Shown here: piece by piece, positions 5,912-33,794 of the stretch
How the letters are laid out: each line of letters opens with the position of its first letter
Position numbering within the stretch: position 1 is the first letter of the stretch
Source: a virus
Lineage: Duplodnaviria > Caudoviricetes
Virus record (IMG/VR): IMGVR_UViG_3300037782_000051
Coordinates: 1 to 48,345 of that record
Length of the DNA stretch: 48,345 bases
Strand: one strand, 5' to 3'
Notes under the pieces: generated by a model
Database searches by the model: none
The model's input: the letters and a program-made list of their open reading frames with translations, nothing else
What the model was told of the DNA's origin: nothing
Made by a program: the position numbers and the translations under genes

Positions 5912-6087
5912 AAGACGAAAAATTTGAAATTCGCCATTTGCGCATGGAGATAAAACGCGAAACAGCCTGCGCTCAGCAAGCGGAGGATTGCGGCAAACAT
6001 GAGCTTGCTAAAGCCTATCGGCAGGGGCTGAAGGGTAAGAAAAAGAGGTTGAAGGAATTGGAGGTTAGACGGGGAGGTTGTGTGTAG
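5908..6087 (+). CDS. 59-aa basic hypothetical protein whose stop lies in the first attC-like half-site
   Basis: Manual translation MKDEKFEIRHLRMEIKRE...KELEVRRGGCV*. Confidence 0.6.
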   Translation: MKDEKFEIRHLRMEIKRETACAQQAEDCGKHELAKAYRQGLKGKKKRLKELEVRRGGCV

Positions 6088-6096
6088 CTGTAGTTA
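6073..6096 (+). repeat. Truncated attC-like site (right arm only)
   Basis: GGAGGTTGTGTGTAGCTGTAGTTA is 23/24 identical to 9469-9492. No left arm is present upstream. Confidence 0.8.
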
Positions 6097-6228
6097 TACC
6101 TAGCGAAACCAATAAATGTTCCGGCTGCTGGAGGATGCGGAAGCAGCTAGAGAAACCAATATCGGGCATCCACATTTATTCATCATCGCCTATTCCTTTT
6201 GGCATGGGGCGCTAAAATCTTATTTAAA

Positions 6229-6438
6229 ATGGAAACGACTTACATCATAATCAACCCAAAAACCAATTCTTACTTTGAGGGTTTTTTTGCTGGAAATACC
6301 AACCAGATTACATGGACAGATGATTATTCTGAAGCTGTACATTATTCCTCTGTAGAAGAAATAGAGAACGCAAACTTCTATGTAAAGGGAGATATTCATA
6401 AAGTTGAACATAAAATTAGCGCCCTAGCTAGGGTATAA
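6229..6438 (+). CDS. Cassette 1 cargo (cassette 6093-6439), hypothetical 69 aa
   Basis: ATG after TTTAAA; the stop TAA lies within the TAAC core. Confidence 0.75.
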   Translation: METTYIIINPKTNSYFEGFFAGNTNQITWTDDYSEAVHYSSVEEIENANFYVKGDIHKVEHKISALARV

Positions 6439-6495
6439 CGTACAAGTACTGGCGCTGTGCCGACTGTAAGGAGGTATAGGCGCTAGTACGTTGGT
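6437..6495 (+). repeat. attC-like hairpin 1 (AAC...GGT)
   Basis: GTACTGGCGC/GCGCTAGTAC stem with apical CCGACTGTAAGGAGG. Confidence 0.8.
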
Positions 6496-6625
6496 GTACG
6501 ACGGCTACCAATAGATAGTCGGCTGAGCGACAGTAGGAGCCAGCTAAAGAAACTCTACTCAGGCATCATCTTGTATCAATAGAATTTATTTCAAAGGGCA
6601 GTGCGCCCTTAAAACTATAATTACA

Positions 6626-6874
6626 ATGAATCCTTTTCAACCCTTTAATTACCCTAATCAAAACGACCAATTAAGAAAGAATCAACATCAACAACCCAGA
6701 ACTAAATTTAAGGACATTCAGGTAGGGGACGTCTTTAAACTAGAATGGTCTGGAGGATATACTTTATTTGAAAAAAAATCTAAATCCACGGCAATTGTAT
6801 TAGAATCAGAAATCAAATCTCCTGTTTTTGAGGTTGGAGATATTGAAAATTTCAATCCTAATTCACTTATTTAG
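6626..6874 (+). CDS. Cassette 2 cargo (cassette 6493-6893), hypothetical 82 aa
   Basis: ATG 133 nt after the GGT core; the TAG abuts the inner repeat GGCGCAC. Confidence 0.75.
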   Translation: MNPFQPFNYPNQNDQLRKNQHQQPRTKFKDIQVGDVFKLEWSGGYTLFEKKSKSTAIVLESEIKSPVFEVGDIENFNPNSLI

Positions 6875-6890
6875 GCGCACGCTGTCGTAC

Positions 6891-6954
6891 ACCGTACAGG
6901 GCTACACGCCGTGCTGCTGGGGACTCGGTTGGGGCATGGTGTGTAGCTGTAGTT
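6891..6954 (+). repeat. attC-like hairpin 2 (ACC...GTT)
   Basis: GCTACACGCCGTGC/GCATGGTGTGTAGC stem. Confidence 0.85.
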
Positions 6955-7083
6955 ATGCACCGGCTTAATTCTAATCATACGGCCCTGCGACAATAGGAGC
7001 TGGGCTTAAGAAATTATAATCGGGCAATATTGCCTTTCATTTCAAGGCTCATTCTTCGGGTGCGCCGCTTAAATCAAATTAAA

Positions 7084-7371
7084 ATGACAACATTAGAGCA
7101 AGTTAAAACAGTGCCTATCAATATTTTGCTTGAAAAAGTATGGCCCTGTGGTTTATGCTTAATGCGAGATTGTATGTGGATTGCTTTCTGGGAAAATGAA
7201 GATGAAGAAACGGCCTATACTCAAGATTCAGATTCTTTTGAAGATTTTATTTACAGGGTGATTGCAGATCAAATTGAAAACGGAGATGTTGACCATGAAG
7301 GTTTTAATCACATATCAATTGACTTTGCTATAGCATCAGTTGAGTACAATGAAGCGGCGGCTGGTGCATAA
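7084..7371 (+). CDS. Cassette 3 cargo (cassette 6952-7372), acidic hypothetical 95 aa
   Basis: ATG at 7084 after an A-rich stretch; the stop lies in the TAAC core. Confidence 0.75.
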   Translation: MTTLEQVKTVPINILLEKVWPCGLCLMRDCMWIAFWENEDEETAYTQDSDSFEDFIYRVIADQIENGDVDHEGFNHISIDFAIASVEYNEAAAGA

Positions 7372-7435
7372 CGTGCAGAGCTACCCGCCGTACAGCTTAG
7401 GCCGAGCGTTGGCGTATGGCGGGTAGCGTGTAGTT
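7370..7435 (+). repeat. attC-like hairpin 3 (AAC...GTT)
   Basis: GCTACCCGCCGTAC/GTATGGCGGGTAGC stem. Confidence 0.85.
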
Positions 7436-7567
7436 ATACCTAGCGAAACCAATAAATGTTCCGGCTGCTGGAGGATGCGGAAGCAGCTAGAGAAACCAAT
7501 ACCGGGCATCCATATTTATTCATCATTGCTTAATCCTTTTGGCAGGTGCGGCATAAATTAATCAGAA

Positions 7568-7876
7568 ATGAAATACCCTGAATCAATAATCAAAAAGCTA
7601 GTAATTGCATTTATTGTCATTCTTATATTCAATGCAATTATTTTTTACAGAATGGGGTATCACCAATCAAAGGTTGACATCGCCCACGAATACCCAATCT
7701 TCAATTTGAAAAATGAAGTCTTCAACGATGTTGAGTTTGAAGATGGAATGATATACTTTATGGGCGGTGTCAGCCATAATCACACAGTATACACCTATGA
7801 ATCTGATACATTAATTTTCTTATTCACATATCACCCAATGTCTGGTGTTTTTCTTGAAAAAGAATTGCCGCACTAG
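7568..7876 (+). CDS. Cassette 4 cargo (cassette 7433-7888), N-terminal membrane-anchored protein
   Basis: KKLVIAFIVILIFNAIIFY hydrophobic segment; leader nearly identical to cassette 1. Confidence 0.75.
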   Translation: MKYPESIIKKLVIAFIVILIFNAIIFYRMGYHQSKVDIAHEYPIFNLKNEVFNDVEFEDGMIYFMGGVSHNHTVYTYESDTLIFLFTYHPMSGVFLEKELPH

Positions 7877-7885
7877 CTAGGGTAT

Positions 7886-7942
7886 AACGGACGAGTACTG
7901 GCGCAGGCCTGAGGTACGAAGGCTTGGCGCTAGTATGTTGGT
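7886..7942 (+). repeat. attC-like hairpin 4 (AAC...GGT)
   Basis: GTACTGGCGC/GCGCTAGTAT stem with apical CCTGAGGTACGAAGG; same family as hairpin 1. Confidence 0.82.
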
Positions 7943-8072
7943 GTGTGCAGTTAAACCCTTAATCATAGGGTGAGCGACAGTAGGAGCGAACAAGAACAAA
8001 CCCACAACGGGTATCACAATAATTCTTTCACAGTCTAATCCTCCGGGAGCGGGCGCTTAAAACTTAATTACG

Positions 8073-8342
8073 ATGAAACAAGAATTGAATTTTATGGATG
8101 TTGATCTCGGTCACTTTGATACCGAATCGAAAACTTTTCACCCTAATATAGATAATGTAAAATCAATTGAAGTGATGGGGGAAAACAATTGCAACAATCC
8201 AGAAATTATGGGGTCTATTGAAATTGTATGTTACGATGAAAAATGGGATTGGCCAATTTTCATGTGGGTTAGAGAAGATAAGATAACACTATCAACAAGT
8301 GTATCGTATAGCAACCGCCGAAAAGTAATTTATCTTTCTTAG
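8073..8342 (+). CDS. Cassette 5 cargo (cassette 7940-8360), hypothetical 89 aa
   Basis: ATG 133 nt after the GGT core. Confidence 0.75.
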   Translation: MKQELNFMDVDLGHFDTESKTFHPNIDNVKSIEVMGENNCNNPEIMGSIEIVCYDEKWDWPIFMWVREDKITLSTSVSYSNRRKVIYLS

Positions 8343-8357
8343 CGACCGATTGCACAC

Positions 8358-8417
8358 ACCGGACGGGGCTACCCGGCGTATGGAGCGCAGCGTAATATGA
8401 TCGGGTAGCATAGTGTT
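8358..8417 (+). repeat. attC-like hairpin 5 (ACC...GTT)
   Basis: GCTACCCGG/TCGGGTAGC stem. Confidence 0.78.
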
Positions 8418-8538
8418 GGGTGCAGGCGTACAAATAATAGTGCGGCGAGTGACGATAGGAACGAGTGACAAGAAACCCTAAACTGGTATTTATTAATTCC
8501 TTTCTTTACTCTTAATCGGGGTAGAGCAGGGAGCGAAG

Positions 8539-8626
8539 AACGGTTGGGTGTATGGTGTGTAGCTGACACCACTAACTTTCGGCTAAAGAACTAATGTTTA
8601 ATCTGCTATACACTATATATTGTGTT
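8539..8626 (+). repeat. Nested longer attC-like hairpin of a different family inside cassette 6
   Basis: AAC...GTGTATGGTGTGTAGC / GCTATACACTATATAT...GTT; all non-Watson-Crick pairs in this stem are G-T. Confidence 0.72.
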
Positions 8627-8648
8627 AGCCACCGTAAATACTAAGATT

Positions 8649-8879
8649 ATGATTTTAGAAACAGGATTCAAACTACCACGAGATAAAGGCGTGATTCGAT
8701 TTGGTGATGTACTTAAAAGTAGTATGACACATGATGTAGTAGTAATGTTCCATCAAGGACAGAAGAAACCTATCGTAAAAGTGATAGATGAAGATATTTG
8801 GTTTGAACTTGAAGAGTTTCTTGACTCATGTGGTTCACGTCTTGAAATTAGCCACAACATTAATTATTATTGTGGCTAA
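8649..8879 (+). CDS. Nested cassette cargo (GTTAGCCAC 8624 ... GTGGCTAAT 8880) within cassette 6 (8415-8950); weakly YopX-like
   Basis: ATG at 8649. IRFGDVL...LEISHNI loosely recalls the YopX C-terminal pattern. Confidence 0.65.
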   Translation: MILETGFKLPRDKGVIRFGDVLKSSMTHDVVVMFHQGQKKPIVKVIDEDIWFELEEFLDSCGSRLEISHNINYYCG

Positions 8880-8921
8880 TACTTATCCATGTTCAACATT
8901 TCATTGAATATAGATATAGTT
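8878..8921 (+). repeat. Degenerate nested attC-like hairpin (AAT...GTT)
   Basis: TATCCATGTTCAA/TTGAATATAGATA imperfect stem. Confidence 0.55.
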
Positions 8922-8947
8922 CTTCCCTCCCTGCGGAGCTTGCACCC

Positions 8948-9003
8948 AACGTACAGGGCTACACGCAGGCGCGAGGCACGAGTGCTTGTGTGTAGCTGTA
9001 GTT
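8948..9003 (+). repeat. attC-like hairpin 6 (AAC...GTT)
   Basis: TACAGG-GCTACACGCAGGC/GCTTGTGTGTAGC-TGTA with apical GCGAGGCACGAGT. Confidence 0.85.
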
Positions 9004-9133
9004 ATGCACCGTTTTAACCAGCAGTAGACGAGCCGTAGTGTGCGAAGGCGGGTGACTAATTAATCGGGTAACAAACAATTATTATTTATTCATTTTTATC
9101 TGGCGGCTTAATCGTCAGCAAAACACAACAATC

Positions 9134-9409
9134 ATGCAAACATCAAAAAGAACTGAAATTCATGTAAACCAGCGAATGATTGAAATTCTATCTAAAGGCG
9201 ATTATATCCCATCGCTAGAGGAAGAATTTCAGATCAATTATACCACACGCGGGGTACTTCGCAATGATACCTTAAAGGTTGTAAAAATTGAAGATGAAAC
9301 ACACACAAGTGAACCAACTCAATTTCTACCTGAGATAGAAACCGTTGTAACAAAAATTCACTGTGAAGTTGTAAAGAACCATCATAAACAAAGATTTTCA
9401 TCATATTGA
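9134..9409 (+). CDS. Cassette 7 cargo (cassette 9001-9431), hypothetical 91 aa
   Basis: ATG 133 nt after the GTT core; bracketed by TGGCGGCT/AGCCGCCA. Confidence 0.75.
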   Translation: MQTSKRTEIHVNQRMIEILSKGDYIPSLEEEFQINYTTRGVLRNDTLKVVKIEDETHTSEPTQFLPEIETVVTKIHCEVVKNHHKQRFSSY

Positions 9410-9428
9410 TAGCCGCCAAATGGTGCAT

Positions 9429-9491
9429 AACGTACAGGGCTACACGCAGCCTGTTCAGCCCTCGCGTTGGAGGTTGCGTGTAGCTGTAGTT
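9429..9491 (+). repeat. attC-like hairpin 7 (AAC...GTT)
   Basis: GCTACACGCAGCCT/AGGTTGCGTGTAGC stem. Confidence 0.85.
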
Positions 9492-9616
9492 AGGTACTGC
9501 GAAACAACTAAATGGTCAAGGCGGCGATAGCAAGCCGGGTGACTATAACAACAGGCATCAAACCAGTATTCATCATTCATTTTCTTCGGGCGACTGCCAG
9601 CGTAAATAATAATCGA

Positions 9617-10252
9617 ATGCAAAACAAATTCTTAAATATTGATTGTATGGACGAGCGGGAAGGGCTGCCGTCTTATCCTGATAATTTCTTTGATCTTGCT
9701 ATTGTAGATCCACCTTATGGGTTAGATATAGGTAATTCTCCTAGAATTGTAACAGATAAGGGTATCAAGGGCAAGTCTTGGGATTCAATGATACCTGATA
9801 GAGAATACTTTGAACAGTTAAATCGGGTATCTAAAAATCAAATTATTTGGGGCTGGAATTATTTTGTCCCATTTTTATCTTCTTGTCAATGCTATATCGT
9901 TTGGTACAAGCATCAACCTGTCAAATCTTTTGCAGATTGTGAAAGTGCTTATACATCGTTCAAAAGACCCGCTGTTGTTTTTGACTTTAGATACTATGGG
10001 AATATTGAAGGCGGGACAAAAGCTAGTTTGAAAATTCATCCTACTCAAAAACCAATAAAGCTGTATCAAAGGACTTTAACGGAATTTGCCAAACCGGGCG
10101 ACCTTATTCTTGATACTCATGTTGGTTCTGCATCATCATTAATCGCTTTTGAAAGTATGGGATTCAATTACCATGCTTTTGAAATTGATGAAGATTATTA
10201 TAAGGCAGCCCTGGAGCGCATGCGGGCGGGCATTCAAACAGCAATTTTTTAG
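9617..10252 (+). CDS. Cassette 8 cargo (cassette 9489-10273): N6-adenine/N4-cytosine DNA methyltransferase, beta-class motif order
   Basis: Catalytic DPPY, then HPTQKP, then SAM-binding ILDTHVGSAS and FEIDEDYY. Confidence 0.9.
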   Translation: MQNKFLNIDCMDEREGLPSYPDNFFDLAIVDPPYGLDIGNSPRIVTDKGIKGKSWDSMIPDREYFEQLNRVSKNQIIWGWNYFVPFLSSCQCYIVWYKHQPVKSFADCESAYTSFKRPAVVFDFRYYGNIEGGTKASLKIHPTQKPIKLYQRTLTEFAKPGDLILDTHVGSASSLIAFESMGFNYHAFEIDEDYYKAALERMRAGIQTAIF

Positions 10253-10270
10253 CTGGCAGTAGTAGTACCT

Positions 10271-10335
10271 AACGGACAAAGCTACACGCTGCCACGCCCA
10301 GCCCTCGGTTCGCCGGTAGCGTGTAGCGTGATGGT
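10271..10335 (+). repeat. attC-like hairpin 8 (AAC...GGT)
   Basis: GCTACACGCTGCC/GGTAGCGTGTAGC stem. Confidence 0.85.
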
Positions 10336-10482
10336 GTGTGATGTGATATTCAAATAACTGAGCTGCGACGATAGGAGCGCGGCTGTATTAATACCCCCGA
10401 GCCTGTGGAGGCCGGGGGAGAATGAACTAAATTTTTTCATGGCCTAACCCTACTCGGGCAGGCAGGCGTAAAATAATTTTAA

Positions 10483-10671
10483 ATGAAAGATCAAAAGAAA
10501 AGTGTTGAAAATAAACCTAAAAGAAAACCTTGGAATTACGGGAAAAGAAAACCCATTGTAGATGAAATGGGGAATAAATGGTGTAATTGCATAGAACCAA
10601 AACTAACTTCTAATTCAGGTGTAGGTGGTCAAGCATATTGTTTAAAATGTCATTCAAATTGGTATCATTAG
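10483..10671 (+). CDS. Cassette 9 cargo (cassette 10333-10690), small basic Zn-ribbon-like protein
   Basis: CNC...CLKCH cysteine pairs. Confidence 0.65.
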   Translation: MKDQKKSVENKPKRKPWNYGKRKPIVDEMGNKWCNCIEPKLTSNSGVGGQAYCLKCHSNWYH

Positions 10672-10687
10672 CCTGCCCATATCACAC

Positions 10688-10743
10688 ACCGGACGGGGCT
10701 ACACGCAGGGCTGAGGTACGAAGCCTTGAGTGTAGCTGTAGTT
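10688..10743 (+). repeat. attC-like hairpin 9 (ACC...GTT)
   Basis: GCTACACGCAGGGC/GCCTTGAGTGTAGC stem with apical CTGAGGTACGAAG. Confidence 0.85.
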
Positions 10744-10891
10744 ACATGGCGTTTTAACCTATAATAGTCAAGCAGCGACAGTAGGAGCGCGGGTGACTTT
10801 TCTACTCAGCTACAAACCCTTTCCAATCCTGTCTATTCCGTGTGCGGCCCTAAACTAAATATACTTTGTGTATAAAATAATTGATATAAAA

Positions 10892-10924
10892 CTTGCGCGT
10901 GTGGTATACTTATTGTATATTGCA
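10892..10924 (+). promoter_or_regulatory. Promoter inside cassette 10 (CTTG-N20-TATATTGCA)
   Basis: Same spacing as 5311 and 32051; followed by an A-rich leader. Confidence 0.65.
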
Positions 10925-10953
10925 GCATCATTAACAACAAAACAATATAAATC

Positions 10954-11184
10954 ATGAAAAAGTACCTAGTAAATACCTTATTGAATATCATTCACGAGGT
11001 ATCTGAAATTGGAGGTGAAGTTGATCGCACAGATTTCATTCGTGCTGATGGAAGCAAAGGATGCGTTTTTGGTAAAGAATGGAAAACCATGCACGCAGAT
11101 AATGAGGAAGATATAAAAAATCACCTCCGAAAGCACAGAGAGTATTATTGCAGGATTAACGGATATAGCACTTTAGAACTTTAA
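10954..11184 (+). CDS. Cassette 10 (10741-11414) cargo gene 1, hypothetical 76 aa
   Basis: ATG after the promoter and A-rich leader. Confidence 0.75.
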   Translation: MKKYLVNTLLNIIHEVSEIGGEVDRTDFIRADGSKGCVFGKEWKTMHADNEEDIKNHLRKHREYYCRINGYSTLEL

Positions 11185-11227
11185 CCCAAGCCCCCGCGAT
11201 AACATCAACGGGGCTAAATCTTTTATT

Positions 11228-11413
11228 GTGGATAAAATCATTTCTATCTACCTCGAAAACCAAACCGAGAAAGCAAATCGGCTTGGTAAACACCGTCAAA
11301 CATTAGTGGCTTGGAAACGCAACCCTTCTCAGGCTAGCTTGCAATTGATCGAAGAAGACCTTAAAGCGCTTCTTCTTCTAATACAAGAATACAAGACCGC
11401 AAATGCCATGTAA
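11228..11413 (+). CDS. Cassette 10 cargo gene 2, HTH-like 61 aa
   Basis: QTEKANRLGKHRQTLVAWKRNP resembles an HTH; GTG start; the stop lies in the TAAC core. Confidence 0.6.
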   Translation: MDKIISIYLENQTEKANRLGKHRQTLVAWKRNPSQASLQLIEEDLKALLLLIQEYKTANAM

Positions 11414-11426
11414 CTACATAACACCC

Positions 11427-11468
11427 GCAACCCCGTATGTAAACGCTTGTAAACGACTACGGGGTTGC
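11427..11468. repeat. Perfect 11-bp inverted repeat closing the array
   Basis: GCAACCCCGTA...TACGGGGTTGC, 12 nt after the last AAC core. Confidence 0.7.
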
Positions 11469-12114: not shown

Positions 12115-12152
12115 TTTGTAGTTTTACATCAACAACAACAAAGCAATTGCAA

Positions 12153-12995
12153 ATGAAAACAGTAACATCAATATCAGGCGGAAAAACATCTGCTTATCTT
12201 GCTACTCATTACCCTACTGATTACAACGTTTTCTCTTTGGTTAGAATAGAGGACAAAAGTGCTGCGTTCCCTGATAAGAAAATTAGGCAAATAGTAGAGG
12301 ATAAAATCCAAAAGCAATTTATTGCTACAGCTGAAGATGATACTATCATTTACACAATTCTTGATCTTGAGCAGCATATCGGCAGAAAGATACATTGGGT
12401 ATCAGGCGACACCTTTGACAGCGTTATCGAACAAAAAGGCGGTTATCTTCCTAACAAGATGCAACGTTTTTGCACTTCAGAAATGAAGTTAAAGCCTATT
12501 TTTTATTGGTGGGCAGAAACAATAAGCGAACCAATAAAAATGCAAATTGGCTACCGGGCTAATGAGCAAAGAAGAGCAAACACTATGCTATCTAAGTGCA
12601 ATGAAGACGGATTGCTCGAATATAAAGCAACATTTGAAAAGCACTCAAATGGGAACAATAAATGGGAGCAAATACCATGGCAAAAACCATCATTCCCGCT
12701 TATTGATAACGCTGTTTTTCGTGACCAGATAGAAAACTATTGGACTGGTCAAACCGTCCGTTTTGCTGATTACAATAACTGTGTCGGCTGCTTTCATCGA
12801 AACCCCTTATTTCTTCGTAAGATGTGGGATAAACATCCAGCTAAGATGGATTGGTTTGAATCAAAAGAAACAGGGCCGAAAAACCCAAATTGGAGATCTG
12901 ATATATCTTATTCACAAATTAAGCAGCACCGCCCTCAATTTGAATTAGATTTTTCAGATTTTTCAGATTGCGATTCTGGATACTGCGGAATGTAA
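12153..12995 (+). CDS. PAPS-reductase-like (PP-loop) protein with Cys clusters
   Basis: SISGGKTS PP-loop, RFCTSEMK, IGYRANE, NCVGCF and terminal CDSGYCG. Confidence 0.8.
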   Translation: MKTVTSISGGKTSAYLATHYPTDYNVFSLVRIEDKSAAFPDKKIRQIVEDKIQKQFIATAEDDTIIYTILDLEQHIGRKIHWVSGDTFDSVIEQKGGYLPNKMQRFCTSEMKLKPIFYWWAETISEPIKMQIGYRANEQRRANTMLSKCNEDGLLEYKATFEKHSNGNNKWEQIPWQKPSFPLIDNAVFRDQIENYWTGQTVRFADYNNCVGCFHRNPLFLRKMWDKHPAKMDWFESKETGPKNPNWRSDISYSQIKQHRPQFELDFSDFSDCDSGYCGM

Positions 12996-12998
12996 CAA

Positions 12999-13032
12999 GA
13001 AAGCCCCAAACGCTCTTTTGCGCGGGGCTTTC
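12999..13032. terminator. Hairpin at the convergence of the two genome arms
   Basis: GAAAGCCCC...GGGGCTTTC between convergent genes. Confidence 0.7.
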
Positions 13033-13066
13033 ACCAAAACTGCTGTAACTCTCATACGATGCTAAT

Positions 13067-14708: not shown

Positions 14709-16289
14709 TTAATTTTTCACTGCCTTGCGCTCGATAGTATTCTGCGCGAAAGTGACAGTATTGATTTGTGAAAATGTCCTCTTTATGTTCGACACTGTCT
14801 TGCGCCGTGGTGCGTCTAGCTGCGAACGCTGCCCGGCAACTTCAGTGATTATTGTCTCAATCTGTACATCGTACCCTGCACGCTTCATCAGCATCTCATA
14901 AAAGTGCCGCACCCAAAACGTCATATCGAGCTTGTCGTCTGTAGCATTTAGCACAAAAGCCCGGTTGGTGAAGAACTCAGCAGTAGCAAGTGTAATCGCC
15001 TCAACAGCATCTTCAGCATACAGCTTGCTATCATAGCGCACTGTTAGCCTAACTTCATCGGTATAAAACTTTCCTGAGCCAAACGGCTTCCACATCACAG
15101 GATAGTTGTCTGATAACTTGACAATGATAGTGCGCTTGTCCTTTTCCGGCTGATCTGGTTCGTCCGGTTCATCTGGTTCGTCATCATTCGGCGTATCGGG
15201 GTTGCCGTTATGTTCATCGCTGTAGCTTTCCGGGTTGACGTCCTTAAGCGCTGTCAGGATATTAACGCCATATCCATACTTTTCATCCCATCCTTGCGGG
15301 CCTAAGCCCACCGCATTAGCACGCAGGCAGTTGCTCACCTGCTTAGCTGTAGCGTTCGATGTAGCCCCTAGAATAGCAGCTATTGCTGCCTGTGTAGGCG
15401 TTGCCATCGAAGTGCCTGACAGTTCAGCGTAACCACCGTTAAGCCATGCGCCGTACACCCGGACGCCTGCCCCTGACATATAGAGCTGTGGCCCGTAGTT
15501 GCTAAAGCCTGCAATAGTGCCTGAGTTGTCAATTGCTCCGATAGCGTGCGCACTTGTCCCGTTTGCCGGAGTGCCGATGAAGTTCTGCCCGTTGTTACCA
15601 GCAGCTGCAAGAACAAGCACGCCAGCATCTTCAGCTTTCTCAATAGCGCTGTTGAATTGCTCATTAACGCTTTGGCTGCCTAGCGAAAAATTAAAGATGA
15701 CAAACCAACCATCATCAATCAGCTTTTTTGCTTCTGCTGTGCCTGTCTCGATGCCTGTAACGATTTGGCTTGTATAGCCATAGCCCTCCTTTCGCAAGAC
15801 TTTGTAGAAGATCAGCTTCAGGTTATCGCCTAAGATAGATGCAGGCCCAAGCTTGTAGTTAAACTCATGCTTGCCTGCAATGCAGGTGCCTACGTGTATG
15901 CCATGCCCATGCTTTGCGCTTGCAGGCTCTCCTGTAAATATTTTATCTTTCTCAGGCCACGCGAAATCCTCAAGGCTCTTATGCCCTGCTTCGCCTTCAG
16001 TATCGAAGACGAACACCGCCACCTTGCGCTTGATACGCTCCTTAATCCACGCCTCGTTCTGAGCCACGCGGTAGTAATCGTACGCCCAATTGCCGTTCGC
16101 GTCAGCGGTGGCAAGGCTTGGTATCATCGGTATCTGCTCGATCGGGTCAAGGAAGACCTTTCCCGGCCCTTGATTCTCCTGAATGAAGCGCTCAATACGC
16201 TTGTACTCATTTGAATACTCATCAGGCACAGGCTGTGCGAAGAGCGTAAAAGTAACTGCTGTTAGTAGCAGTATCAGTAGATTCTTCAT
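14709..16289 (-). CDS. Subtilisin-like S8 serine protease with signal peptide
   Basis: VFVFDT, HGHGIHVG, AAAGN and GTSMATP catalytic motifs; N-terminal MKNLLILLLTAVTFTLFA|Q. Confidence 0.9.
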   Translation of the reverse strand: MKNLLILLLTAVTFTLFAQPVPDEYSNEYKRIERFIQENQGPGKVFLDPIEQIPMIPSLATADANGNWAYDYYRVAQNEAWIKERIKRKVAVFVFDTEGEAGHKSLEDFAWPEKDKIFTGEPASAKHGHGIHVGTCIAGKHEFNYKLGPASILGDNLKLIFYKVLRKEGYGYTSQIVTGIETGTAEAKKLIDDGWFVIFNFSLGSQSVNEQFNSAIEKAEDAGVLVLAAAGNNGQNFIGTPANGTSAHAIGAIDNSGTIAGFSNYGPQLYMSGAGVRVYGAWLNGGYAELSGTSMATPTQAAIAAILGATSNATAKQVSNCLRANAVGLGPQGWDEKYGYGVNILTALKDVNPESYSDEHNGNPDTPNDDEPDEPDEPDQPEKDKRTIIVKLSDNYPVMWKPFGSGKFYTDEVRLTVRYDSKLYAEDAVEAITLATAEFFTNRAFVLNATDDKLDMTFWVRHFYEMLMKRAGYDVQIETIITEVAGQRSQLDAPRRKTVSNIKRTFSQINTVTFAQNTIERKAVKN

Positions 16290-32113: not shown

Positions 32114-32587
32114 ATGGAGATCAAAGTAACAAATAGCAAAACATACAAAGGACGCAAAGAGAACTGGACAGAACAAAAAACTCGTTCTTTTCGATTAAAG
32201 TCAGATTTAGTTTGCGTTCACAAATCAGAACGTAAGATCAAGTCTTTTCAGTCTGGAGTAACGACCTGTGTATATGATGAATTTGATTCCAAAGAACAAC
32301 TGGAATCAATGACTTACGAACAAGCAAAAAAACACAATATAACTCGTGACTATACTCATATAGTACGCCCTGATAATAATCCTGATTACGTTTACACAAT
32401 GATTCTTCCTGCTGGGACTTATGTCGAAGAGTATGACAACGAATACCGATTCGAAATGTCTAGCGAAATTAAAATCAAATTAATTGGAACAATGGGTCGG
32501 GTTAGAATTACAGACGAAGAGCTACATCCTTATGAGTGTTCAGTATATGGAGGGAAGTGGATTAATGTATTCACAAAAAAAATATAA
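32114..32587 (+). CDS. Hypothetical protein (moron-like island gene 1)
   Basis: AT-rich ORF opposite to the structural genes, with its own promoter. Confidence 0.75.
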   Translation: MEIKVTNSKTYKGRKENWTEQKTRSFRLKSDLVCVHKSERKIKSFQSGVTTCVYDEFDSKEQLESMTYEQAKKHNITRDYTHIVRPDNNPDYVYTMILPAGTYVEEYDNEYRFEMSSEIKIKLIGTMGRVRITDEELHPYECSVYGGKWINVFTKKI

Positions 32588-32591
32588 TGTA

Positions 32592-32795
32592 ATGACAAAA
32601 GAGCAACTCCAATCAGAAATATCAAGCCGCTTCGCATCTAACAGCGATTTCATCAGCGCATTCAACGCGCTAGGTGGCAGCCTTTCGCTTGATGTAATTA
32701 GCCATCAGCTTGCAGGCCGTAGAGGATTAAGCAAGATGGCTGTATCTGCTTACACATTCTTCTTCAAATTACATGACTTAACAACAGAGCAATGA
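32592..32795 (+). CDS. Small HTH-like protein (island gene 2)
   Basis: ATG at 32592; SNSDFISAF...LSLDVISHQLAGRRGLS pattern. Confidence 0.6.
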   Translation: MTKEQLQSEISSRFASNSDFISAFNALGGSLSLDVISHQLAGRRGLSKMAVSAYTFFFKLHDLTTEQ

Positions 32796-32995
32796 AACCT
32801 ACAAAAAAAGGACAGCGATTTACTACTTCAGTAGTTCAGGGGTTATTCAAGGTCAAATGCTTCTTTGGCAAATCAGGTGTCGAGTATGACACCTACCAAG
32901 AGGCAAAGCGTGCCAACCCGACAGGATTTATTTTGATTCGCCCGGTAGGCTCAGATGGTTCAGTGCAAGCAAACCTCTGCGAGCTTGCCGAATAA
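32792..32995 (+). CDS. Hypothetical protein (island gene 3)
   Basis: ATGA overlap with gene 2. Confidence 0.65.
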   Translation: MKPTKKGQRFTTSVVQGLFKVKCFFGKSGVEYDTYQEAKRANPTGFILIRPVGSDGSVQANLCELAE

Positions 32996-33009
32996 CACTA
33001 TCAACAACA

Positions 33010-33035
33010 AAGCGCCCTGCAAATGTGGGGCGCTT
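33010..33035. terminator. Hairpin between convergent genes
   Basis: AAGCGCCC...GGGCGCTT. Confidence 0.6.
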
Positions 33036-33387
33036 ACTTTTTCCGCTCCTGCGCCTTCGCTTTCTTCTTAACCGCCTCTAAGGTCCTAAAAAACTCAAGC
33101 ACCGTCATGATCTTCGGGTCTTTGGTCACGTGCTGCTGCATCGCAATGCAAACGTCTTCAAAACTTACTACCGTTTTGGCTTCAACGCCGTTCGGCCCCC
33201 AAAACTGTTGCGGTGCTGTAGAGGACAATAGCTGCCCGTCAAGCGTATCAATTTTGCTTTGTTCTATGTCTTTGCCTGTAATCTGCTCAAGCATCAGTAA
33301 CGCCCGCTGTTTGAGCTTCAGGTATTGCTGCTTAATTTTGCCGGATTCCTTTTGTGCCGGGAAATAAAGCTCCATTTCCCCATCCAC
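33034..33387 (-). CDS. Tail assembly chaperone, frameshift extension (gpT-like)
   Basis: Opens in the -1 frame exactly at the A9G run of the upstream ORF. Confidence 0.7.
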   Translation of the reverse strand: MDGEMELYFPAQKESGKIKQQYLKLKQRALLMLEQITGKDIEQSKIDTLDGQLLSSTAPQQFWGPNGVEAKTVVSFEDVCIAMQQHVTKDPKIMTVLEFFRTLEAVKKKAKAQERKK

Positions 33388-33794
33388 TTTTTTTTTACCG
33401 ATTCAATTGCAGCACGAACAACGCCTACAGTCAGCCCTTTTTTGTTCAGCCGCTGTAAGACCTCCCTTGCGCTTGCCTCATCGCTTATGCGCACCTCTTC
33501 GCCGTTAATCGAATGAATAAGCGCTGCAAAAGATAGCATCTCCGGGTTACTGTTCTCGATCACAAACGCCATGCTTTGGCGCATGTTGTCAAGCTCTCTA
33601 AGAGCATTTTCCTGTTGATTATGCTTAATAAACTGCCTTGCACGCAATAAACGGCGGTCTACATCTTCAATCGTGCCCCCTATGCCTGCATCAATAGCAG
33701 CGTACAAATTGAATCGGTGGAAGACGGTAATAGGCATCGTCTCTATGCTGTCATATAGTTTAACGGACTGCCCGTTTATTCTCAGCGTTTGCAT
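33318..33794 (-). CDS. Tail assembly chaperone (gpG-like)
   Basis: Contains GTA AAA AAA AAG (slippery A-AAA-AAG at 33387-33393); upstream of the tape measure. Confidence 0.7.
   Translation of the reverse strand: MQTLRINGQSVKLYDSIETMPITVFHRFNLYAAIDAGIGGTIEDVDRRLLRARQFIKHNQQENALRELDNMRQSMAFVIENSNPEMLSFAALIHSINGEEVRISDEASAREVLQRLNKKGLTVGVVRAAIESVKKKWMGKWSFISRHKRNPAKLSSNT

Follow-up and report, generated by a model that had tools for sequence, protein, structure and literature searches.

The 48,345-nucleotide virus record IMGVR_UViG_3300037782_000051 (Duplodnaviria; Caudoviricetes), referred to here at its full length as the window, is an entire phage contig, for which completeness was rated at 100% and in which genes for the terminase, portal, DnaB and amidase are present. 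It carries an array of ten gene-bearing units separated by nine hairpins. The array is real, has been shuffled at its exact cores and is of the integron kind. It works like an integron without being a complete one, and departs from the attC sites of integrons in its bulges, its spacer and its core. In the probable reading of these data, a phage-borne integron-type array ends on the right in a fixed docking site and carries its genes in antisense; a XerD-like tyrosine recombinase of the host is the likely agent of its shuffling and would, by prediction, work on hairpins folded from single-stranded DNA. All ten units and all nine hairpins had been reported in an earlier note on this DNA, and were found again in the same places (Table 1). 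That note had also recognised no tyrosine or serine recombinase, HUH protein or reverse transcriptase (RT), and this absence is borne out for the complete genome, as PF00589, PF00239 and PF00078 gave no match (PF00589 none at E ≤ 1), and neither Pfam (62 open reading frames, ORFs) nor PHROGs (52 ORFs) named a recombinase or HUH protein above the cut-off.

Junction hairpins and the fixed site at the array head

Pattern scans for relatives gave one real locus in viral contigs, two in genome contigs, 28 in metagenomes and three further viral ones; all seven loci from the frame-pattern scan of viral contigs and six of the eight from the genome-contig scan were discarded as chance. Annotated phages matched chiefly to the methyltransferase (among the 20 of 41 records listed). 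Many of the loci are close relatives in which the left ORF and the amidase are kept and different units lie between them. At the right end, the core of the last unit is joined directly to TA and a conserved site. This joint between AAC/ACC and TA is exact in each of the 19 loci compared, whose last units end in 10 different 10-mers; the set includes near-duplicates, and the anchor was shifted by one base in four cases. One relative (L143) has a single truncated unit at the fixed site, and in the contigs of run X2 unit-1-type and unit-7-type ends are joined to it. At the left end, 7 different break positions are observed in 13 rows, none of them at a core. The comparison of related phages suggested in the earlier note hence shows that cassettes have been gained, lost and reordered exactly at the core boundaries. 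The right end (11412-11454) is no tenth hairpin but a distinct fixed site and, judged by comparison of relatives, the equivalent of an attI at the array head where cassettes enter. Because this conserved attI-like site is present, 'CALIN' (cluster of attC sites lacking integron-integrases) undersells the array; from the earlier description, the integron-like shuffling platform of a Bacteroidota phage without its own recombinase stands, the polarity that it implied does not, and the CALIN label falls short. In L047 and L049 the array also follows the amidase, and it is found too in a genome bin of Phaeodactylibacter (a Saprospirales genus), within an unrelated prophage. The prophage record G003 has an integrase of its own ~11 kb from its array, which was taken as the prophage integrase.

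These joints also bear on the idea that the repeats are regulatory modules (terminator, processing or translation signals) shuffled by homologous recombination, like the promoter-early stem-loops (PeSLs) of T4-type phages. PeSLs resemble the window in their repeated stem-loops around small accessory genes, in the variable region and in the modular shuffling, and are described to form mini-circles (PMC2839356); the hairpins and frames of the array are 60-95% alike and could recombine, and the left ends of arrays break at varied places. However, the fixed site has just 2-3 bases in common with the unit ends, yet the joints are exact in all 19 loci, and such exact joints at a non-homologous fixed site argue against PeSL-type exchange. 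Whereas PeSLs, as presented in that source, are promoter-terminator motifs exchanged mutually, each unit here keeps its own paired ends, and related hairpins bound canonical cassettes in host chromosomes. I regard an origin of this kind as unlikely.

The nine hairpins measure 56-66 nt from AAC/ACC to GTT/GGT, with no integrase nearby; for attC sites a size range of ~57-141 bp is given (PMC5027507). Folded as DNA, their top strands reach -9.7 to -18.0 kcal/mol (z -1.0 to -4.1, 200 shuffles each), and the + strand fold is more stable than that of the bottom strand in 9 out of 9. The + strand of the hairpins is 36% G, and the bottom strands of recombining attC sites are comparably rich in G (PMC5027507). 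The two arms covary across 46 family hairpins, in which 94.9% of cells are paired, compared to 85.4% after shuffling (0 of 500 shuffles reach the observed value, in a test that is inflated by related sequences among the 46) and 24-44% with slid partners. A model of the hairpins, as proposed in the earlier note, matched the nine sites, which were in its training set, and their own reverse strands, with no other match in the window at E ≤ 1.

The term 'bulged hairpins' holds in so far as these are paired, imperfect hairpins; their unpaired bases are not single bulges, and form an asymmetric central spacer of 7 vs 4-5 nt. Over 61 junctions the spacer lengths are 7/5 (30), 7/4 (24), 6/4 (4), 6/5 (2) and 5/4 (1). 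The L stem is paired to 96.7% over 12 columns without a bulge, and bulges occur only nearer the tip. When the R box is compared to RYYYAAC/GTTRRRY, the triplet alone is kept; ACC/GGT is found in 3 of the 10 window units, all four core pairings are seen among the 61 junctions, and the pairing extends over 10 bp of unit-specific sequence.

Polarity and comparison with integrons

The earlier note implied that each unit is a gene followed by its own attC, and this order has to be reversed. Hairpins at least 90% identical account for 23% of the 71 junction pairs that share the right unit, for none of the 46 that share the left unit and for 3% of 1705 others; each hairpin moves together with the unit to its right. 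Seven host genomes were compared: in six, the gene adjoining the GTT side lies on the opposite strand and has its end at the hairpin, and in the seventh a recombinase-transposase pair occupies this place. From the linkage of the hairpin to the right unit and from the location of host genes on the other strand it follows that the integron direction runs from right to left, that the + strand is the 'bottom' strand and that the cargo is antisense. All 11 cargo ORFs of the window array lie on the (+) strand, opposite to the inferred polarity, so that the genes are not co-oriented with the array. The middle base of the core (ACC/GGT) moves with the unit, unlike the next spacer; this fits a cut between A and C of AAC, the position at which attC sites are cut (PMC5027507).

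With integron arrays (attI, attC, IntI) the window shares folded hairpins with AAC cores, an unpaired central spacer, a variable tip and one stabler strand (PMC5027507), as well as a crossover that fits a cut between AA and C and a fixed simple site at the array head. Unlike integrons, it has no integrase in cis, its genes are antisense and its units add a conserved frame and an inner stem. In comparison with attC, the paired core is 10 bp instead of 7 bp and unit-specific, ACC cores are common, and the L stem has no extrahelical base.

The AAC/GTT cores, the length of 56-66 nt and the strand bias would also suit an ordinary IntI-dependent CALIN served by a canonical host integron integrase. 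IntI1 recombined 5 of the 6 phage attC sites tested by others (PMC9892861), and one TIGR02249 match over the cut-off is present in G002, a genome from the host family treated below. However, this canonical IntI (L104, G002:C485) is cut short and located on a 3.2-kb contig without a hairpin match; it was set aside as unlinked, and my guess is that the contig was misbinned. The other four of five genomes have no TIGR02249 match over the cut-off. In the array itself, the first 8-10 bp of the L stem have no single bulged base, the spacers are 7/4-5 and not 5-6, and ACC is found in 16 of 61 left cores. It is thus quite improbable that a canonical integron integrase serves the array.

CALINs in phages have been published before, 17 among 10,705 genomes (PMC9892861). 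Those of Qi et al. 2023 (PMC9892861) are attC-like clusters without integrase, including one in a Polaribacter (Bacteroidota) phage, with methyltransferase cargo as in the window; compared with what the available text of that paper describes, the window has ten units, an attI-like site, shuffling across relatives, inverted polarity and reusable frames. Bacteroidota are named among integron carriers, with no detail in the accessible text (PMC8618304), and a literature search, thin on subscription papers, returned no paper on phage arrays of inverted polarity, on reusable frames or on cassette arrays in Saprospiraceae.

A candidate recombinase in Saprospirales hosts

Related hairpins are present in 15 of the 151 genomes of the family of G002 (Saprospirales chromosomes), where the cassettes have a terminal repeat but no frame. 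The earlier note had called for a search of Bacteroidota genomes for a co-occurring recombinase, and a candidate was found: a XerD-like tyrosine recombinase whose catalytic motifs are intact immediately precedes the arrays of G058, G152 and G002 in the same orientation, and is present in 69 of the 151 family genomes. Among 15 recombinase loci with at least 400 nt downstream, five have a hairpin there, together with a unit whose terminal repeat measures 8-10 bp, and the junction is located 20-183 nt from the stop. The XerD-like enzymes match TIGR02249 only at ~1-181 and 237-315, skipping ~182-236, and an alignment agrees with this, albeit a poor one in this stretch. The candidate host enzyme differs from IntI in having no additional domain and in being co-oriented with its own array. 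This domain is treated as defining for IntI (PMC8352920), and is not fully conserved in an integron-like subgroup of the simple tyrosine recombinases (Smyshlyaev et al. 2021, PMC8138268); unlike the candidate enzyme, the insertion-less members of that subgroup are not tied to cassette arrays or Bacteroidota in the available part of that paper. These observations point to a Bacteroidota integron-type system whose enzyme would escape searches for the IntI domain. They also point to phages with a retained docking site that rely on the borrowed enzyme for variation of their accessory genes, including methyltransferases. I infer that the host enzyme serves the phage array in trans.

A further connection between phage and host is found in spacers. 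When the frame model was run over 150 other genomes, its sole match was a spacer of clustered regularly interspaced short palindromic repeats (CRISPR) in G150, a genome with a XerD-like recombinase and four related hairpins. The CRISPR array of this genome (G150:C146:69187-79500; L148, L146) has 154 repeats, and 17 of 151 spacers match the phage group at 75% or more, as opposed to none in 148 kb of controls; the best match is 35/37, on a frame in L053. Relatives of the window portal protein were found in 2 of 301 family genomes. Two G150 spacers fall on frames, the one just mentioned and one matching 28/35 at window position 7973, and the shared frame is therefore a common CRISPR target across phages.

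Several observations weigh against shuffling by a host XerD-like enzyme, or against parts of the proposed anatomy. Host hairpins score well below phage hairpins (28-41 vs 37-70 bits), and 10 of the 15 recombinase loci have no hairpin. Hairpins in the expected place and strand are only weakly enriched over the controls (6 in 20.8 kb vs 3; 4 and 3 in 42.5 kb). For the hosts, a pattern of attI type that had been formulated with the data already known is found in 5 of 30 vs 1 and 1.1 expected. The G150 spacers match the window itself at only 79-83%, the 7-nt spacer of the hairpins is about equally common to left and right neighbours (0.46 and 0.49), and RNAalifold gave no consensus structure for the frame. 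No excised circle was seen in the sequencing-run contigs (15 of 49 joints were shown, none going back), contigs being uninformative on circles, and the recombination activity of the host enzyme is a prediction. Finally, in L013 the fixed site is located 9 nt before a different, phage-type integrase.

On account of the latter, the same anatomy could be worked by an integrase of this family (P0001), supplied by a helper phage or prophage. In L013 the ORF start downstream of the fixed site has 89% identity with a tyrosine recombinase of 393 aa, and gene and site are arranged divergently, as is usual for intI/attI. However, this link occurs in 1 of 19 loci only, and the P0001 family is rare (4 clusters) and was not found in 201 order genomes or in viral contigs, while the arrays are common in metagenomes; furthermore, its make-up of SAM_5 and Phage_integrase fits prophage integration. 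A P0001 enzyme is therefore a rather unlikely source of the activity. The stretch concerned (L013:3542-3648) is the start of this rare 393-aa tyrosine integrase family, on a contig binned as Balneolaceae that looks like the phage group of the window; its 35 aa matched no Pfam family and nothing in 301 genomes.

Under the favoured reading, with a host XerD-like recombinase, the + strand would fold, and in the excised circle the 10-bp unit ends would pair as a long R box, adjoining the unpaired spacer of 7 vs 4-5 nt and the unbulged L stem. The XerD-like enzyme would cut between AA and C (between AC and C in ACC units) and insert the circle at the double-stranded fixed site, so that new units would enter beside the amidase and old units erode at the left. 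The cassette genes would be read through from the phage + strand operon. The frame, that is, terminal repeat, purine-tipped hairpin and inner stem, may hold the gene ends together, with genes being exchanged within it; this role in gene exchange is the least certain step of the proposal.

Two host arrays have additional features. In G115 (L093:3183-5109 and 8253-10179), a tyrosine recombinase and transposase-like pair is present in several identical copies beside the hairpins of the host array. Another array (L089-L090, G112:C4:912000-933000) has the same cassettes repeated four times, and some of these resemble bacterial toxin-antitoxin pairs, as read from the sequence only.

Unit frames, cargo exchange and neighbouring features

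The units start with GTT/GGT and end with AAC/ACC, and their own ends are complementary over exactly 10 bp in eight of the ten window units; units 1 and 4 have a terminal repeat of 8 bp with a slip. In 55 distinct family units, whose ends were chosen partly by repeat score, the terminal repeat is 10/10 in 34 and at least 9/10 in 43 (cross pairs 6%). Counts for frames and inner stems are based on 52 units, with three wrongly parsed units left out. The repeat is followed by a conserved 5' frame, the sequence model of which matches all ten window units, which were among its training members, and none of the 21 loci from host chromosomes that were searched with it. All 26 distinct tips of the frame hairpin, each a purine internal loop plus a four-base loop at +34 to +39, have a Watson-Crick closing pair, of 4 types (counted per sequence). 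In eight of the ten window units, a word of 7-9 bp at about +101 to +124 pairs with bases at or just after the stop codon; the best such inner stem averages 8.7 bp over the 52 units vs 6.3 for cross pairs. In predicted folds, both stems together would close whole units. GA-flanked tips with three- or four-base purine loops are found in junction and frame hairpins, on the + strand only (e.g. 8385-8392 and 10712-10722).

The layout of the units is similar to the a1/a2 repeats of retrons. Conceivably, they are retron-like RNAs, in which a host RT, primed by the terminal repeat, the 5' hairpin and a G conserved at position 11, makes single-stranded cassette DNA. G11 is at least 90% conserved, the units fold with RNA parameters too, and an RT is present in 3 of 3 host-family genomes. 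However, there is no RT gene in the phage or beside the units, an Rfam search gave a single match, at chance level, G11 faces a T and can pair, and the host cassettes have the repeat without the frame; I consider this very improbable.

Returning to the integron-type reading, the frames are reused around different genes. Identity of 75% or more over 110 nt was found for 63 pairs of frames, of which 49 have cargo lacking a blastp link. The frame type of unit 6 has 7 cargos in 7 copies, that of unit 1 has 5 in 7 and that of unit 9 has 3 in 3; the unit-8 type carries a methyltransferase in 5 of 5. In the window, the frames of units 1 and 4 are 95% identical over 110 nt around unrelated cargo, and the unit-9 frame recurs in L001 and L013 (85-93% identical) with other cargo. 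On either side, frame likeness ends just inside the inner stem, the two arms of which vary jointly. The gene at 12153-12995 is framed in L036/L060 and in L037/L058, with two different terminal repeats and likeness restricted to the ORF, and L046 has a homologue as a minimal cassette.

According to PMC5371416, little is known about the way in which integron cassettes arise. A tentative idea, which I hold to be possible but not likely, is that the frames are cassette-making devices: with start and stop ends held adjacent, a free phage gene could be captured or swapped by a single exchange inside the inner stem, to yield a product that could dock via a host recombinase needing neither the IntI additional domain nor bulged bases. 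Phages would then be cassette factories with a second, IntI-independent integron chemistry, and the 3'-phosphoadenosine-5'-phosphosulfate (PAPS)-reductase-like gene, free in the window, framed in L036/L037 and minimal in L046, might represent capture in different states. Near-identical frames around unrelated genes, with swap points just inside the stem, are defined substrates on which cassette making could be tested.

Two frame types show peculiarities in their 3' arms. Unit-6 frames have an extra hairpin there (window 8880-8925), several of them with GTT-like starts just inside the inner stem, and give the impression of a cassette nested within. In the unit-1 frame type, the 3' arm (window 6414-6439) has stops in all three reading frames, and therefore could end any inserted ORF.

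The earlier note had described the cargo as unrelated and AT-rich. AT-rich it is, with a unit GC of 0.37-0.40 vs ~0.46-0.51 in 1-kb bins of the left flank; all-orphan it is not, as unit 8 is a DNA methyltransferase and unit 10 holds two genes. A stop codon inside the TAAC core, also noted earlier, is present in 3 of the 10 units. On the window, PADLOC named the methyltransferase and the PAPS-like gene and nothing else.

Table 1. Features of the array and its surroundings in the window.
Feature	Position	Strand	Evidence and remarks
Right arm of hairpin alone, eroded far end of array	6073..6092	+	Left junctions of relatives
Unit 1	6093..6439	+	8-bp terminal repeat with slip; frame 6093-6178; ORF 6229-6438, stop in TAAC
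Hairpin J1, attC-like, belongs to unit 2	6437..6495	+	Fold, hairpin model, junction comparison
Unit 2	6493..6893	+	GGT/ACC cores; 10-bp terminal repeat; ORF 6626-6874
Hairpin J2	6891..6954	+	Fold, hairpin model
Unit 3	6952..7372	+	10-bp terminal repeat; ORF 7084-7371, stop in TAAC
Hairpin J3	7370..7435	+	Fold, hairpin model
Unit 4	7433..7888	+	Frame type as unit 1; ORF 7568-7876
Hairpin J4	7886..7942	+	Fold, hairpin model
Unit 5	7940..8360	+	GGT/ACC cores; ORF 8073-8342; G150 CRISPR spacer matches frame 28/35
Hairpin J5	8358..8417	+	J5 type also before unit-6 frames in L013, L032, L034, L042
Unit 6	8415..8950	+	ORF 8649-8879; extra hairpin in 3' arm
Hairpin J6	8948..9003	+	Fold, hairpin model
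Unit 7	9001..9431	+	ORF 9134-9409
Hairpin J7	9429..9491	+	Fold, hairpin model
Unit 8	9489..10273	+	N6/N4 DNA methyltransferase, ORF 9617-10252
Hairpin J8	10271..10335	+	Fold, hairpin model
Unit 9	10333..10690	+	GGT/ACC cores; ORF 10483-10671
Hairpin J9	10688..10743	+	Fold, hairpin model
Unit 10, adjoins fixed site	10741..11414	+	Two ORFs: 10954-11184, 11228-11413
Fixed attI-like site	11412..11454	-	Core, 5-nt spacer, L-like box, two TGTAAAC copies (11438-11444, 11448-11454)
PAPS-reductase-like gene, frameless in window	12153..12995	+	Cassette cargo in relatives, ~82% nt identity

Outside the array, a second variable slot is located between the amidase and a terminator-like hairpin (window 12115-13040). 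It is occupied by the frameless PAPS-reductase-like gene in the window, by a free two-gene module in L143 and by a cassette array in L047/L049 and L055-L057, and is empty in the run X2 contigs. Two-gene modules with a promoter-like AT-rich leader occur both inside frames (unit 10, L056) and free (window 10860-11413 and 32400-33000), and window 32598-32781 matches cassette cargo in L056. Elsewhere in the window, a subtilase-family protease gene is found at 14709-16289, and the structural family phrog_8914 extends over two overlapping ORFs at 33034-33794, possibly by a frameshift.

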